From a virus, in IMG/VR virus record IMGVR_UViG_3300042465_007929, positions 1 to 64,000 of that record: a stretch of DNA of 64,000 nucleotides. One strand, 5' to 3'. The notes beneath the pieces were generated by a model that saw only the letters and a program-made list of their open reading frames with translations, did not search any database and had not been told where the DNA came from. Within the stretch, counting starts at the first letter, position 1. Each line of letters starts with the position of its first letter. This document shows positions 14,927 to 52,371 of this stretch, in pieces. The translations under genes were made by a program, and so were the position numbers.

Positions 14927-15621
14927 TGGAGCGGAATGTCAGAGCAAGGTATAAGATTTGATGAAAATTATACATTTTTCAAGAAAAATCGGAAAATCAT
15001 TTCTTTTTTTATGATTTAAATCTTTAGATGAAATTCTCATTATATTCCAACCATTTTTTATTAAATTTGAATCTCTAATAGTATCTTTTGTTTTATCATG
15101 CCATTTTATACCATCATATTCTATATTTATTTTGTAATCTGGTAAAGCTATATCCAGATAAATATTATCGACTTTATATTCTTGTTGTAATTCTGGAAAT
15201 GTTTTCTTTAATTCTTCAAATAAGACATTTTGCCAATAAGATTTTTTGCCAGCACATTTTCTATTTGGATGCTTTTCAGGATTTAATTTAAAAAATTCTT
15301 TTTTTGATAAAGACATTTTTAATTTACTTTCATCGCTTCTTTTTGAACCAAGATTTTTTAAAGATAAAGATTTTTTTCTTTCAAGAGTCCAACCTTCTTT
15401 AAGTTTTTGCTTTCTATCTTCAGTACAAGGCAAAGTTTTTTTACCTTTCATTGGAGATATTCTGCCAGTTGCTTTTTGACTTCTTATCAAATTGATTTCT
15501 TCAGTCCAAATTCTTGAATTAGCGCAAGATCTGGAACAAAAAACACCACTACCAAATGTTCCATCATGATCTATATTACATTTTTTGCATTGCATATAAT
15601 TATTTACACAATCGAACTAAC
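14927..15621 (-). pseudogene. Relic tRNA 3' half (Gly-like) split by the endonuclease cassette
   Basis: 15610-15621 GUUAGUUCGAUU plus 14927-14942 CUGAC-AUUCCGC-U-CCA rebuild a T-arm and an acceptor strand. Confidence 0.75.
14939..15595 (-). mobile_element. Free-standing homing endonuclease (NUMOD3-like + DUF559/Vsr-like PD-(D/E)xK)
   Basis: FCSRSC, SDESKLKMS, EY...LDIALP..KINIEYDG..WH, GWNIMRI. Confidence 0.85.
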
Positions 15622-15637
15622 TTTATGAATTAAAAAA

Positions 15638-15711
15638 TGGTGCGTTATGTGGTAGTCGAAACCACGCTACTAGAGTGGAAGTCTAGTGTGCTACCGTAAC
15701 ACTTATAACGC
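15638..15711 (-). tRNA. tRNA-Gly(UCC), atypical (A8, U53-A61, A73)
   Basis: Cloverleaf GCGUUAU...CU-UCC-AC...AUAACGC-A-CCA. Confidence 0.85.
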
Positions 15712-15716
15712 AAAAT

Positions 15717-15785
15717 TGGTGGATGTTGGGGAATTGAACCCCGTCCGCAATAGTAAACTATTACGTCGAATCCCTATGGACACCC
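15717..15785 (-). ncRNA. Minimal tmRNA tRNA-like domain lacking the mRNA-like domain
   Basis: GGGUGUC-CAUAGGGAUUCGAC-[GUAAUAG UUUA CUAUUGC]-GGAC-GGGGUUCAAUUCCCC-AACAUCC-A-CCA; G3.U70 and A73. Confidence 0.8.
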
Positions 15786-15786
15786 A

Positions 15787-16254
15787 TTAATTTTCTTTAT
15801 TGAACATTACATAATTATGTACTGAAACAATGTAATCTTCTGCAACTGCAAGTTTTCCTTGCATCCATGTTTCTGTAAGATTATTTTGAACTTTTGAATC
15901 ATTTAAAGAATTTAAAATCGCATCACTATGCGATTTAATTGAAGCAAGTGATGAAATAGCCATGCCATAAAGATCTTTCTTAGTTTCAAGCAACTCATCT
16001 TCTGCACTTTCATCTTCCATCTCTGGCGCATTAAGATCAACTTCTTGAGCTTTACTAGTCACAAAATCAAGAAACTCATCATCTCCAGAGCCAACAACTA
16101 CATCAGCAGAAGCCTTGGCTTCATCATACTGAGTATAGCAAATTGCAATACGTTGTTGGTTCTCCTTGAACTTAGGATCTTTTGCAACTTCAGAAATACA
16201 ACGACTAACGAAGTCTTTCTTTTTCTCTTTTTTGCGCGGCTTTGGTAAAGGCAT
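15787..16254 (-). CDS. Hypothetical phage protein (MPLPKP...FVSRC...QRIAICY N-terminal domain)
   Basis: N-terminal motif seen in phage head-related proteins; GTGTAA 8 nt upstream. Confidence 0.6.
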   Translation of the reverse strand: MPLPKPRKKEKKKDFVSRCISEVAKDPKFKENQQRIAICYTQYDEAKASADVVVGSGDDEFLDFVTSKAQEVDLNAPEMEDESAEDELLETKKDLYGMAISSLASIKSHSDAILNSLNDSKVQNNLTETWMQGKLAVAEDYIVSVHNYVMFNKEN

Positions 16255-16262
16255 AATGTTAT

Positions 16263-16517
16263 TTACACTTTATTGTTTAAAAAATTCAAAATGGTCTGTA
16301 AAGCAATCTCTTGATGATTTGCAGTTCTGATAGCAACATCTTCAGACCATGAATGAGAACCATGATAAATCTTCTTTCTCATCAAAACATTAGTATTCAA
16401 ACAAACAAAATCTTCATCCTCCCAACGAAGGACACTTTTTAAGTATTGAATAGTAATTTTACGTTGATTTTCAAAATCAATTTCGATTTCTTTAGGAACT
16501 GAGACTGTGATTTTCAT
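16263..16517 (-). CDS. Hypothetical protein
   Basis: 84-aa ORF. Confidence 0.5.
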   Translation of the reverse strand: MKITVSVPKEIEIDFENQRKITIQYLKSVLRWEDEDFVCLNTNVLMRKKIYHGSHSWSEDVAIRTANHQEIALQTILNFLNNKV

Positions 16518-16579: not shown

Positions 16580-17284
16580 ATGAATGTATTATACACTGAG
16601 CTAGATTTTTCTCAAGCTAAATTAAGTGATAAATTAAAATTAAAGTGTTTAACGTGTAATGGTATTTTTTTAAAAAAGAAAAAATATATTATAGATATAA
16701 TAAATCGAGGAGGTCATTTTACTAAAGCTGGAACTGGAGATTTTTGCTCTCATAAATGCTCTTCTTTTTCAAAAGTAAAAGCAAAAGAATGTTCTTGTGT
16801 GAATTGTAATAAATCTTTTATTAAAAAACAAAGTCAAATTAAAAAAACTTCAAATCATTTCTGTTCTAGTTCTTGTGCCGCTTCTTATAATAATAAGAAT
16901 AAAACTCATGGAACTAGAAGATCTAAATTAGAAACTTGGTTAGAAGAAAAACTTACTAATCTTTATCCAAATTTAGAAATACATTTTAATCGTAAAGATA
17001 CAATTAATTCTGAATTAGACATTTATATACCATCTTTTAAATTGGCTGTAGAACTCAATGGAATTTTTCACTATGAACCAATACATGGGATAGAAAAATT
17101 AGAGAAAATACAAAATAATGATGAAAGAAAATTTCAAGCCTGTTTAGAACGAGGTATAGAATTTTGTATTATAGATACTTCTGGTCAAAAGTATTTTAAA
17201 GAATCAACATCTCAGAAATTTTTAAATATTATCTGTGATATAATAAAATCAAAAGAAATGAAGGCGGTGTCAGATTCGAACTGA
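16580..17284 (+). mobile_element. Free-standing homing endonuclease (Zn fingers + PD-(D/E)xK, DUF559-like)
   Basis: CxxC/FCSxxC repeats and ELDIYIPSFKLAVELNGIFHY; stop codon lies inside the antisense tRNA-Ser T-arm. Confidence 0.85.
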
Positions 17285-20288: not shown

Positions 20289-20293
20289 AAATG

Positions 20294-20402
20294 TAGAAGA
20301 AACTGGATTCGAACCAATATTGTATCATATTGCCTAAGCAATCAAGGAATCAAACCTTGTCGAACAACTGCCGTTGTTGCATTTCCATTATGCTATTCTT
20401 CT
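20294..20402 (-). ncRNA. Anticodon-less tRNA mimic with two T-arm-like hairpins
   Basis: AGAAGAA/UUCUUCU acceptor, GCAU-AAUGGAA-AUGC D-arm, ACAAC-GGCA-GUUGU, extra CAAGG-UUUGAUU-CCUUG, T-arm AUUGG-UUCGAAU-CCAGU. Confidence 0.75.
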
Positions 20403-20406
20403 GAAA

Positions 20407-21098
20407 GTTGTGCAGTACTCTCCTGCTGTCACACCCATAATCCATAGTTGCGACCTATAAGATCTAGCTGATGTTTCTAAAATTTAGAATGACTGAGATG
20501 TCTAATCTAGGACTCTCAAATAGCGGTCTTCATTAAAGATATGCCCTCAGCCATTCAGTTGTCCATAGGGTGTGCATCCCATCGCCTCAAGCAGGACTGG
20601 CTCTACCTAGTACTATAACCATTACCATAGGTGGTTTCTTTACGGTATATTCCTATTCGCCAAGGAAGTAAAGAACGGTTAGACGAAAGTAGACCAATTG
20701 CCCGCCTAAGCAGGCAATTGGAATGTTGTCCATGGCATCATTCGATGCTTACGTTCACGCAGGACTGGCACTAGCTAATGGTTAGCCCACATTAGTCAGG
20801 GTCCATAGAGTATTCACTCTTCGATTCAAGCAGGACTGGCATTATCTATGGATATCCTCATAGCAGGAGAAGGAAGCCCATAACCTTCGTAAGGCTTTTT
20901 GGTATCTACAATGTATGGTTATTGACCCACACGGAATTTCAAGCCTGTAAGCATAACTTAATATGCTCCTAACTCACCGATTTCCATTGTAAAAATAATC
21001 TCTACCGTTAAACCGACTTTCACTGGTCACGAATTCTTCGCAAATTAAATTTGCTTCACTGGTAGAGTCGCCAACGCATCGTAATCGAATACATTAGC
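20407..21098 (-). ncRNA. Large (~690 nt) multi-domain structured RNA with a triplicated motif
   Basis: No ORF of 60 aa or more in any frame, raised GC, many independent stems, GCCAGUCCUGC...AUGGAC three times. Confidence 0.7.
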
Positions 21099-21518: not shown

Positions 21519-22082
21519 TTACAAAAACTTTTCCCACTCTTTTCTGATACTTGGAACATGAAGGAAAACGCTAGGAATACTAGGCGCTTTCACGATTTCA
21601 TTTTTTACATTATAGTAAGGAGTATGACTAGCCTTTTTTTGATTACATTGAAGACAGGCAAGAGTCCTATTATCATGTTCATCTGTGCCGCCTTTACTTT
21701 TTGGCTTGATATGATCAATAGTAAGATCTGCAACACTAAACTTCTCTAAGCAATATTGGCAAGTAGAATTATAAATTTTAGCTAATTCAACTAGAGAAAA
21801 CCTTTTCTTCTTTGGTCTTTTGAAAAATCTGCTAGTAACAACAATTACTGTTGGAATTGGCCATGATTTCTTTGCACTGCGAAGAACTGGTTGATCTCCA
21901 TAGAATTCAGCATTAGTATTCCACTTATCTACAGAATCAAATAAATTATAATTCTTATCTAGCGCCGAAATATTACCACTTAATAGATGCGCGAAAGCTG
22001 CTTTTGCTGTGATAGCAGTAACAGGTTGCCACGCATTATTAAGAAGAAGAGTTGTTTTAGTGTTGCAGTCTACGATATTCAT
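21519..22082 (-). CDS. HNH endonuclease (McrA-like)
   Basis: CQYC...TIDHIKPKSKGG...N...C..CN..K. Confidence 0.9.
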   Translation of the reverse strand: MNIVDCNTKTTLLLNNAWQPVTAITAKAAFAHLLSGNISALDKNYNLFDSVDKWNTNAEFYGDQPVLRSAKKSWPIPTVIVVTSRFFKRPKKKRFSLVELAKIYNSTCQYCLEKFSVADLTIDHIKPKSKGGTDEHDNRTLACLQCNQKKASHTPYYNVKNEIVKAPSIPSVFLHVPSIRKEWEKFL

Positions 22083-28345: not shown

Positions 28346-29498
28346 TTATTAAATTAGCATCATCTTGAATTGCATAATTTCCTGTTTGATTACTTAGGGA
28401 AGTTATTTGTACTTGAAGCGATCCACTTATGCCTGTAACATATGACTCAGTAACTCCTCCAGACGCTTCTCCACTAAGTAATATTCCAGTTCCATTAACT
28501 GTCGGTCGAGATATAAATGTTTTTACACCGCTTATAATTTGATCTCCAGTTATATAAACTGTTTGATTTTGAAGGTCAATAATTTGTGTTTGAAGTAATC
28601 CGCTTACTCCAGTTACATATTGAGTTGTTGCATATGTAGAAAGATCAACACCAGTAATGAATCCTGATGGATTTGATGTTGCATAAAATACTCCCGTCTC
28701 AGAATGAAGTGTATAATTGCCAGTTTGATCATTCAAGCTGGTGATTTGAGGTTGTAAATGTCCACTTAATCCTGTGATTTGCTCAACAGAACCAATTGTT
28801 GAGAGAGAAGATAAGTCGTTTGCTCTTGTCGAGATCCCAAATTTAAATTTATCAGAATGATCAAATCCAATAATCGCACCCGAATCATTGATTCCAGTTA
28901 ATCCAGAGCCTGTAACAAAGAAAATACCACCATCAACTGCCCCGCCAGTCAAATTCAATATTAAATATGGTGATTGAACATTTGAATTTGTAACATTTAC
29001 AAGTGTTTCACTGCCAGTAACATAAAGATGATTAATATAAACATCATTACTGAAATTTTTTGTTCCATATATTGTTTGAGTACTGCTCAGGTCAACATAC
29101 CTATTATCTGCCGCACCAGTTGTTAAAAATTCTCCAGTATTAGATTTTAAAACATAATCTCCTGTTTGATTATATAAATTAGTAATTTCGTCTTGAAGAA
29201 AACCACTTACTCCAGTTATATATTCTATTGTTCCATACGAAGAAAGATCAATTCCTGTAATAAATCCTGATGGGTTCGATGACGAATAAAATGCTCCTGT
29301 TTCAGAATGTAATGTATAATCTCCTGTTTGACCACTAAGAATATCAATTTGAGATTGTAAAAAACCACTAACTCCAGTTGCTTCAGATTGGGAAACAATT
29401 TCGCCACTTAAAAGAACGCCTGTTCCATTAACAAATGGTCTATTAGTTAAATTAAGATTTTCCGCATATAAATCGCGTACTCTGAAATTATTGGCCAT
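28323..29498 (-). CDS. Tail-fibre-like repeat protein
   Basis: Repeats SNPSGFITG, SGxLQxQI, QxISGxKTF, VNGTGVLLSG. Confidence 0.65.
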   Translation of the reverse strand: MANNFRVRDLYAENLNLTNRPFVNGTGVLLSGEIVSQSEATGVSGFLQSQIDILSGQTGDYTLHSETGAFYSSSNPSGFITGIDLSSYGTIEYITGVSGFLQDEITNLYNQTGDYVLKSNTGEFLTTGAADNRYVDLSSTQTIYGTKNFSNDVYINHLYVTGSETLVNVTNSNVQSPYLILNLTGGAVDGGIFFVTGSGLTGINDSGAIIGFDHSDKFKFGISTRANDLSSLSTIGSVEQITGLSGHLQPQITSLNDQTGNYTLHSETGVFYATSNPSGFITGVDLSTYATTQYVTGVSGLLQTQIIDLQNQTVYITGDQIISGVKTFISRPTVNGTGILLSGEASGGVTESYVTGISGSLQVQITSLSNQTGNYAIQDDANLIIGISVFI

Positions 29499-49938: not shown

Positions 49939-52371
49939 TTAGCTGATCTTCAGTTTATTGTCAATGATTTTTACTGAAATTTTTTGATTTTTTGAATTTT
50001 TAATTATAAATTTAGAAATTGGAACTTGAAACTCAGAACGGACAAGATCCTTAATATTGCGAGCATGAAGTTTGTCGATTTTAATTTTATTTAAAATGGA
50101 TTCTTTTGTTGATGGGTGAAAATTAATTTTGATATTCTTTTCTTTTAATTTTTCTTGAATATTTTTAATTTCAATAGAAACAATAGATTCAAGCTCTTTG
50201 CTGGATAGTTCATTAAATACTAAAATATTATTAATTCTAGCAACAAATTCTGGCTTTAAATATTTTTTTACAGCGTCTTGATAAATAGTCTCTGGTTCTT
50301 CTGTATCATTAATAAAGCCCATTGATTTTTTTTCTTTTTTATCATGACCAATATTACTAGTAAGAATCACGATAGAATTTGTAAATGAAATTTTATTATT
50401 AAGATTATCATTAACATAGCCTTCATCAAGAAGATGAAGCAGCAAATTTAGAATTTCTGGATCGCATTTTTCAACTTCATCAAAAAGAACCACACAATTA
50501 GGATTGCTTCTTACGAACTCAGTAAGAAGTCCTCCTTGCTCGAAACCAACATAACCAGCATTAGCCCCAATCAATTTACTTATGCCTGTTTTCTCTTGAT
50601 ACTCGCTCATGTTGATTTGAATAAAAGCTTTCTCATTACCATAAAAATGTTTTGCAATTTTCTTTGCAGTATATGTTTTACCAACACTCGTAGGTCCGAC
50701 AAAAAACAAACTACATAATGGTTTATTTGGATCATTAAGTCCTACTTTAGCACATGATAAAATATCGGTAATTTGCTCAATATTCTTAGATTGGCCAAAA
50801 ACTTCTTTTTCAATATTCTCTTGGAATGTGGAGAAATCATTGATATTGATCGAGATAGAATTCTTAGAAAGTCCACTTTTTTCAGAAATGACTTCAATCA
50901 CATCAGACAATTTAATTGTGAATTTTTTCTTAAATAAGTCTTCATTAAATATTTTGATTTTTTCAACATAAGAAATTAAAGCATTTTCACATGTGAATTC
51001 ATCTTCTTCATCATTGAATGGTTCATCACGCAATAATTTCTTCATAAGATAATTTTGTAAATCTTGAACTTCATCAGGAAGTTTAATGTTTTTAATTTTT
51101 ACCCTAGCACCAACCAAATCAACAATATCAAATGCTTTATCTGGAAAATTTTTATGAGGAATATAACTATCACAAAGATCAATAATAGCATCAATCACTT
51201 TTGATGGATACTGAACATGATGAAATAATTCATAATCCTCAATACAATTAGAGATGATTTCTTTAGTTTGTTTTTTAGATGGAGCTTCTATAGAGATAGC
51301 GTCAAATCTTCTTTTCATTGCGCCATCCTTTTCGAAATATTTTTTATATTCATTGCTTGTTGTTGCCCCAATACATTTAAAGTTCCCCCTAGCTAGGGCT
51401 GGCTTTAACATATTTGAAGCATCTAACGAACCCTCTGAGCTTCCTGCTCCTACGATGTTATGAATTTCATCAAAAAATAAAATAATATTCTTATGTTCTG
51501 ATGCAGCTTCAATAAGTTCTTTAAATCTTTCTTCAAATTCTCCTCTATATCTAGTACCAGAAATCATTGATGCAAGATCAACACTGTATATTTCTGCATT
51601 TAAAAGATTAGCTGGTACGTTATTATTAATAACTCTTTGCGCTAAACCTTCAATAATTGCTGTTTTTCCTACCCCACCTTCTCCAATAAGAATAGCATTA
51701 CTTTTGACTTTCTTAGAAAGAATTTCAATGAGTTCGTTGATTTCTTTATCCCTGCCAGAAATATTATTAAACACTCCAGAAAGAGCCTTAACATTTAAAA
51801 AAGTACAGTATTTTTCAAATGGTTTTGCTTTTTTCTTTGGTTCTTGATTTTTTAATTTTGATACTTCTTTTGGTTCTATATTTTTTTCTTGTGGTAATTT
51901 TTCCACTTCACAAAAAGATTCAATATGAGATTTAATGATTTTTTTAAATTCATTAGTATCAATATTCTCTTTTGACAGGAAAGCGCAAAACTCATCTGAG
52001 TTTTCTAAAATAGAATAAAAAATATGTTCTATCCCAATATAATCATGTTCATAAACTTCAGAAAGTTTTTGAGCATAAGAAATTACTGTTTCTGTTTCTT
52101 TATGCCAAGAACTTTTAAAAATTTCATCATAAAATTCATCTGGATTGTTTTTAGCATATTTTATAATTAAAGATTTGAAATCTATGTCTTCAATAATTAT
52201 TTCATTGATCTCTAACATCATAGTTAGATCTTCAGATAAATTTAATAAACACCCATAAAATAAATGTGAATTGTTGATGCGGCCATGCGAATATTCTACT
52301 GCAAATTCCTTGGCTGATTTATAAGCTTTTTTAGCTCTTGGTGTTAAATTGAAATTATTTATTCCCATCAT
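49939..52371 (-). CDS. clpC: ClpA/ClpC-family AAA+ unfoldase
   Basis: Clp-N repeats, [35 protein letters not shown] ClpP-docking loop. Confidence 0.88.

Follow-up and report, generated by a model that had tools for sequence, protein, structure and literature searches.

A phage tmRNA consisting of the tRNA-like domain (TLD) only is a type already published, as the tmRNA of Mycobacterium phage DS6A is listed as 'TLD only' (PMC4131195). According to the portions of PMC4131195 and PMC11915505 that relay Mao et al. (2009), tmRNA is strongly inhibited by a DS6A-like molecule whether or not that molecule can be charged, perhaps through titration of SmpB; this inhibition was seen on expression in E. 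coli, not in infection. We read the DS6A element directly: it is 83 nt long, lies at about 28478-28560 of NC_023744, is unannotated in GenBank and is listed in the tmRNA Website as tmID 11587. Reduced forms reported from organelles include CDS-less plastid tmRNAs of about 65 bp in Mallomonadaceae and a tag-less mitochondrial tmRNA, and tags of two amino acids (Ala-Ala) also exist (PMC11915505). Binding to SmpB and, in vitro, poly-Ala synthesis without a template are described for engineered TLD fragments in PMC3929946, citing Shimizu and Ueda (2006), and D/T-loop contacts are required for SmpB binding (PMC3968760). Our literature searches returned no paper describing a widespread family of TLD-only tmRNAs in phages.

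Identification of a tag-less tmRNA gene in an uncultured phage

The window analysed here is a stretch of 64,000 nucleotides (positions 1 to 64,000) of the virus record IMGVR_UViG_3300042465_007929, which has 139,990 bases and 33% GC, is rated complete and comes from an uncultured phage. The first 50 bases of the record repeat at 139274, and the DNA polymerase III alpha of this phage matches cultured phages at 26-31% identity. The window carries a short tmRNA-like element, called the mini-tmRNA below, with the following parts and neighbours:

15717 to 15785, minus strand: tag-less, TLD-only tmRNA gene of 69 nt, in standard non-permuted order, with encoded CCA
15779 to 15785, minus strand: 5' acceptor strand, G1 to C7, with G3 at 15783
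15766 to 15778, minus strand: stemless D-loop, 13 unpaired nt with the tmRNA signature end (GG..UUCGA); predicted contact with SmpB and within the elbow
15746 to 15765, minus strand: helix-2 stump of the tmRNA, an 8-bp hairpin whose UUUA loop lies at 15754-15757
15743 to 15746, minus strand: GGAC connector preceding the T-arm
15728 to 15742, minus strand: T-arm of 4 bp with a 7-nt loop
15717 to 15727, minus strand: 3' acceptor strand and CCA, with U70 at 15723, the mismatched A66 at 15727 and the discriminator A73 at 15720
15787 to 16254, minus strand: upstream 155-aa ORF with no assigned function, marking the conserved mini-or-full tmRNA slot
15638 to 15711, minus strand: tRNA-Gly(UCC), beginning 5 nt past the CCA of the mini-tmRNA
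16263 to 16268, minus strand: GTGTAA motif, a candidate phage promoter, 8 nt before the ATG of the 155-aa ORF

The best Rfam match at this position was tmRNA (RF00023), with 42.1 bits and an E-value of 3e-15; the alignment spans model positions 1-374 with both ends aligned and about 306 positions skipped. Since this score lies just under the gathering score of 47, the gene is missed by a standard scan and by ARAGORN, and no RF00005 (tRNA) call was made at the site. Both searches had been suggested in a preliminary description of the window; the tmRNA model thus gave a sub-gathering match and ARAGORN gave no call. The match is not due to chance: a structural parser found it once in the real genome and not at all in 60 Markov-resampled genomes. 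Taken with the conservation and covariation described below, the Rfam result supports an assignment to the tmRNA TLD, with features of the AlaRS and SmpB sites that appear intact. The preliminary description had also proposed a TLD-only tmRNA, and that identity holds up; the novelty it implied does not, as such RNAs were already known from DS6A, Mallomonadaceae plastids and mitochondria.

The stemless D-loop terminates in GAUUCGAC, the T-loop is UUCAAUU on a 4-bp T-stem, and the acceptor stem forms six of its seven pairs, with C7.A66 mismatched and G3.U70, A73 and CCA all present. The acceptor and T arms therefore comprise 11 positions together, compared with the usual 12. A hairpin substitutes for the mRNA-like domain of about 300 nt and its pseudoknots, so that a 4-nt loop alone parts the two halves. 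All TLD elements listed in the preliminary description are present, including G3.U70, A73, the C7.A66 mismatch and the 4-bp T-stem; the strand, which it did not state, is minus. Its statement that there is no tag ORF or pseudoknot and that the order is not permuted is borne out by the Rfam alignment and the 4-nt loop. The hairpin, given there as 7 bp, is real but reaches 8 bp when a pair between the C of GAC and the G that opens GGAC is counted, and the Rfam consensus adds two more non-standard pairs. Folding energy is modest on the minus strand (z -2.1); the plus-strand fold of 15717-15785 gave no meaningful structure (z -0.9). A U(-1)-A73 pair that would restore a 12-bp arm was considered and rejected because position -1 varies (T, C or A) among relatives with the 4-bp stem.

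Several other assignments were tried. A tRNA-Ala is excluded by the missing D-stem, by a 4-nt loop in place of a 7-nt anticodon loop, and by the lack of an ARAGORN or RF00005 call; ARAGORN found no tRNA-Ala anywhere in the genome. A canonical tmRNA does not fit an RF00023 score below gathering with about 306 model positions missing, the mRNA-like domain included. A permuted or two-piece tmRNA was rejected on the standard order and on the failure to find a separate coding piece in the genome, where blastn and tblastn with the full-length tmRNAs and tags of sister phages gave chance matches only. No second tmRNA match was found anywhere in the 139,990 bases.

Genome setting

The mini-tmRNA and tRNA-Gly(UCC) are probably co-transcribed; they lie where a series of about ten tRNA genes ends. 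The stop codon of the 155-aa ORF ends 1 nt ahead of G1. Genome-wide, 10 of 41 GTGTAA copies sit 8-9 nt before an ORF of at least 60 aa, compared with 0-2 at eight control spacings; this enrichment makes a shared transcript of the ORF, the mini-tmRNA and tRNA-Gly from GTGTAA plausible. A scan for sigma-70 promoters stayed at chance level (10 found, 10.2 expected).

The tRNA operon also contains homing/HNH-type endonuclease genes at 14939-15595 (minus), 16580-17284 (plus) and 21519-22082 (minus). ORFs resembling them flank the full-length tmRNA in two sister phages (L437 and L370) and may drive exchange at the locus. In a long ORF-free stretch of the operon, at 20561-20840 (minus), three motif copies start with GCCAGTCCTGC and end with ATGGAC, with variable middles. 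An aberrant tRNA-like gene lies at 20293-20402 (minus); ARAGORN calls it tRNA-Ser, and its Rfam tRNA match covers 109 nt with 40.9 bits. Outside the operon, a ClpA/ClpB-like AAA+ ATPase of 810 aa is encoded at 49939-52371 (minus), with 27-36% identity to the cellular matches returned; it could bear on proteolysis control alongside the mini-tmRNA.

A family of mini-tmRNAs in viral sequences

The preliminary description had suggested looking for the same compact form in phage genomes, and pattern scans of IMG/VR and JGI metagenomes found it widely: at least 213 parsed copies, at least 137 of them distinct, DS6A and the window's element included. The patterns enrich minis with a 4-bp T-stem, so that the count of this subclass is inflated and its share is no estimate of frequency. 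Two size classes were present among the matches listed, one of 62-72 nt with a single hairpin (44 sequences) and one of 74-88 nt (93 sequences), the latter mostly with an internal loop like that of DS6A. A model built from the 4-bp-T-stem subclade matches DS6A at 31.6 bits. Against cultured phages, blastn of the mini-tmRNA returned T-arm or tRNA-level matches only. A scan for 11-bp 3' arms recovered minis and unrelated elements, with no full-length tmRNA among them.

Among the matches listed, 136 of the 137 distinct minis have G3.U70 and not one has A3-U70, under patterns that mostly fixed U70 and not G3. GG in the D-loop accompanied 102 of 104 TTC-type T-loops and was absent from 26 of 33 GGC-type ones (matches listed; Fisher p 2e-19, which ignores kinship), and this tracking of D-loop and T-loop points to an elbow that has been preserved. 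In 13 sequences with a 4-bp T-stem, 92.8% of cells were paired and 28 double changes were present; neither value was reached in 500 shuffles, and all slid controls were lower. Pair 7 was unpaired in 8 of 10 scored cells of the same set. Such covariation indicates purifying selection on the fold.

An independent metagenome (L332) contains a near-identical copy with one change, from A-U to G.U in a stem. This copy bears on the idea that the element is either an attachment-site remnant, with ssrA ends copied in attP, or a tmRNA whose middle was lost through faulty assembly. Integration at ssrA is common, and prophages contain fragments of it (PMC9004378), but both the 5' and 3' halves are present here, not the 3' part alone, and they are joined by a designed-looking hairpin; no tyrosine integrase (PF00589) was found in the genome, and an artefact would have to recur in L332 and in many diverged copies. 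We regard this explanation as largely refuted and extremely improbable.

Some further elements were noted in these scans. In the long minis (77-88 nt; for example L012:2385-2466, L013:806-887 and L165:3059-3139), helix 2 has an A-rich internal loop that recurs and a small hairpin at its apex; these are absent from the short class and may bind a further partner. Two tRNA-like elements in phage tRNA clusters, L487:4087-4159 and L485:6474-6501 (both minus), end in GGAC, a 4-bp T-stem and ACCA; they have an anticodon-like arm, a mismatched acceptor and a weak tmRNA-model match (16 bits). About 14 related viral contigs (L475-L482, L486 and L488-L492) contain a recurring GC-rich element with a tRNA-like 3' end (T-arm and CCAC); the three copies tested matched no Rfam family.

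The tmRNA slot in sister phages

To retrieve the loci of relatives, the upstream ORF or a structural gene close by served as the query, without use of the RNA, and the sequence after the ORF was inspected. A mini-tmRNA occupied the slot in eight distinct relatives (L015, L016, L017, L020, L500, L503, L506 and L508), and a full-length tmRNA did so in six (L370/371, L437/497, L493/494, L495/496, L498 and L499), a count inflated by the choice of queries. Neither form was present at four loci (L433, L507, the distant L509, and L502). The slot is thus polymorphic for mini, full or absent, and the two forms never stood together there among the loci examined. The full-length tmRNAs measure about 354-402 nt and have tags ending in ALAA-like residues; blastn with a sister full-length tmRNA gave no match in cultured phages.

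L502 is the closest relative examined, with an upstream ORF 92% identical, and its mini is broken: at L502:1970-2032 (plus), the first six mini bases are fused to a degenerate tRNA-like remnant with a T-arm and a Gly-like 3' end. The remnant matched nothing in Rfam; the mini-tmRNA and tRNA-Gly appear to have collapsed into one broken piece. The mini gene is dispensable, as this relative, the closest by its upstream ORF, has lost it.

Full-length tmRNA is near-universal in bacteria. For this reason we infer the direction from full to mini; most simply, an internal deletion in a full tmRNA carried by a phage removed the mRNA-like domain and left the mini. In a tree of the upstream ORF (66 columns), the mini carrier L500 groups with full-length carriers on a branch with support 97/93; holding all minis together was not rejected (p-AU 0.067), and the tree of a neighbour need not be that of the RNA.

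Minis found by synteny keep TTCGAC, G3.U70 and A73 in all cases and show double changes in the hairpin, and compensatory changes were seen in nine sequences found by synteny alone. L506 gives independent confirmation, having the same 4-bp T-stem with A-U in place of G-C. In L016 and L503 the hairpin stem is that of the window's element, but the T-loop, on a 5-bp T-stem, is of the GGCAG type, like the T-loop of the full-length tmRNA of L495, and thus parts have been exchanged or have co-evolved. The preliminary description had held that a full-length ssrA at this locus in relatives, with the short form as a one-off deletion, would speak against its reading. Relatives do carry full-length ssrA here; the short form, however, is no one-off, being kept with compensatory changes in many diverged phages.

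A mere relic of a full phage tmRNA, with no role beyond that of a tRNA-like signal in processing of the operon, would account for the full-length forms at the slot, for the lack of the gene in L433 and L507 and its broken copy in L502, and for the mismatched pair 7 and short T-stem. It accounts poorly for compensatory changes in the acceptor stem and the new hairpin, for the same truncation boundaries in 44 short and 93 long distinct minis (matches listed) from unrelated viruses, and for G3.U70, which an RNA kept just for processing could do without; many relatives, moreover, have the same mismatch at pair 7 and the 4-bp stem. Decay is therefore an improbable explanation.

Across the clade the T-stem ranges in length from 4 to 6 bp, which suggests a loose ribosomal constraint. 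This would suit a decoy against host defences that sense or cut tRNA or tmRNA, an RNA mimicking the charged head of tmRNA with no role in ribosome rescue. The position in a tRNA operon fits such a decoy, as do the tRNA genes found within 1.5 kb of 44 of 137 minis among the matches listed, and a role against defences that target tRNAs has been proposed for phage tRNAs (PMC10264068). However, no partner defence system was identified, and the conserved features are exactly the determinants for SmpB and AlaRS; we give the decoy little credence.

Several sister tmRNAs had features of their own. L495:2730-3083 (plus) is a full-length phage tmRNA with a GGCAG-type T-loop and apparently a 6-bp T-stem (13-bp arm); ARAGORN did not call it, Rfam scored it at 73 bits, and a group I intron match lies at 1016-1208 among the tRNA genes of the same locus. 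The full-length tmRNAs at L498:2700-3101 and L499:1597-1998 resemble each other at the 5' end and in their 27-aa basic tag and differ in T-stem sequence, which suggests that the T-arm was exchanged. At L498:925-1028 lies a further tRNA-like element with a weak tmRNA-model match (31.9 bits).

Possible function of the mini-tmRNA

tmRNA is processed by RNase P, carries AlaRS identity elements and is bound at its TLD by SmpB and EF-Tu. The reading we prefer, with a probability of about 0.5, is that the mini-tmRNA is a functional phage gene whose product would be alanylated, bound by SmpB and act as a competitor that lowers SsrA tagging. During infection, it would be co-transcribed with the upstream ORF and tRNA-Gly and excised by host RNase P and 3' nucleases. 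Host AlaRS would charge it with alanine via G3.U70 and A73, and SmpB and EF-Tu of the host would bind it, the phage having no smpB of its own. It may then compete with host tmRNA, so that in an infected cell fewer proteins are SsrA-tagged and degraded by way of the tag; because it has no tag frame, the net effect would be reduced tagging, as in the dominant-negative effect reported for the DS6A-like molecule.

The Rfam tmRNA match, the same architecture in DS6A, the conserved fold, the near-invariant G3.U70 and the tracking of D-loop and T-loop types all favour this competitor, together with a genome in which no smpB, full tmRNA or detached tag piece was found. Several points stand against it. 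The reported inhibition was independent of charging, yet G3.U70 is almost invariant, so that alanine transfer on the ribosome fits better than pure sequestration. That inhibition was observed in E. coli expressing the molecule and not in infection, and the gene is dispensable, as its loss in L502 shows.

The main rival, which we hold only tentatively and consider rather unlikely, is template-free rescue or Ala-tailing. A complex of Ala-TLD, SmpB and EF-Tu would enter an empty A site, take the nascent chain and displace the broken mRNA; drop-off and Pth, or ArfA/ArfB, would free the chain, possibly once several rounds had built up a short tail of Ala. On this view the mini would replace a full phage tmRNA at little cost and act like the mitochondrial tag-less tmRNA. 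The near-invariant G3.U70 and A73 and the alternation of mini and full forms at one slot, never together there, agree with rescue, as does the phage's own ClpA/ClpB-like ATPase. So do the template-free poly-Ala synthesis by engineered TLD with SmpB in vitro (PMC3929946), the persistence of tag-less mitochondrial and plastid tmRNAs, and the existence of Ala-Ala tags (PMC11915505). However, the sole in vivo test of a similar molecule in the portions of the literature cited above gave inhibition, not rescue; with no stop codon, the peptidyl-RNA needs another release factor; and the acceptor/T arm, one pair short in this subclade, may misplace the CCA end on the ribosome.

A full tmRNA with a tag frame is retained in the slot by sister phages, which suggests overlapping rather than opposite roles and is a further point against the competitor. 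Competition and template-free rescue can overlap, because a molecule that takes a stalled chain also pre-empts tagging. The two functions named in the preliminary description, SmpB sequestration and tag-less rescue, are the right two candidates; SmpB titration has the published precedent.

A broader proposal, which we regard as doubtful, is that phages have repeatedly cut their own full tmRNA to an alanylated head of about 65-70 nt that works with host SmpB in template-free rescue or C-terminal Ala-tailing. If true, the minis would be a natural mRNA-less branch of trans-translation and not mere inhibitors, with the 11-bp-arm subclade as a structurally distinct version; if inhibitory, they would be natural trans-translation inhibitors. 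In the literature, tag-less phage tmRNA figures as an isolated curiosity known from DS6A, whereas a large conserved family of at least 137 distinct sequences is found here, which standard annotation misses, ARAGORN being blind to it and the Rfam cut-off unreached. With full, mini and absent states at one locus, the clade is a natural experiment on tmRNA supporting rescue versus blocking tagging, and the family bears on the role of tag-less mitochondrial and plastid tmRNAs.

Comparison with known systems

DS6A and the window's mini-tmRNA are both phage-encoded, single-piece and non-permuted, with G3.U70 and A73, a stemless D-loop ending in UCGAC, a T-arm and no tag frame. In DS6A (83 nt) the helix-2 stump is longer, comprising an internal loop together with a small hairpin, and the arm has the canonical 7+5 bp, whereas the window's element has 69 nt, a single 8-bp hairpin, a 4-bp T-stem and a pair-7 mismatch. 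The window's element also differs in lying in the tRNA operon of a 140-kb phage of 33% GC and in having sisters with a full tmRNA in its slot.

The plastid (Mallomonadaceae) and mitochondrial (RF02544; jakobids, oomycetes) tmRNAs are likewise TLDs without a tag frame and of similar size. In each case, however, the organelle has no other tmRNA and its SmpB is encoded in the nucleus, and permutation is usual among the mitochondrial forms; the window's mini belongs to a virus and has to share the cell with an intact host tmRNA. With full-length RF00023 tmRNA it has TLD sequence and structure in common, but it has no pseudoknots, resume codon, tag ORF or stop codon, and complete trans-translation is impossible. 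The engineered T. thermophilus TLD (5' 25 nt and 3' 34 nt joined by UUCG; PDB 2CZJ) has nearly the same design, its two strands also closed by a tetraloop; the window's form is natural, under selection, and has a T-stem one pair shorter. What differs from these known systems is the short single-hairpin class, the 11-bp acceptor/T arm and the alternation of full and mini forms at one locus.
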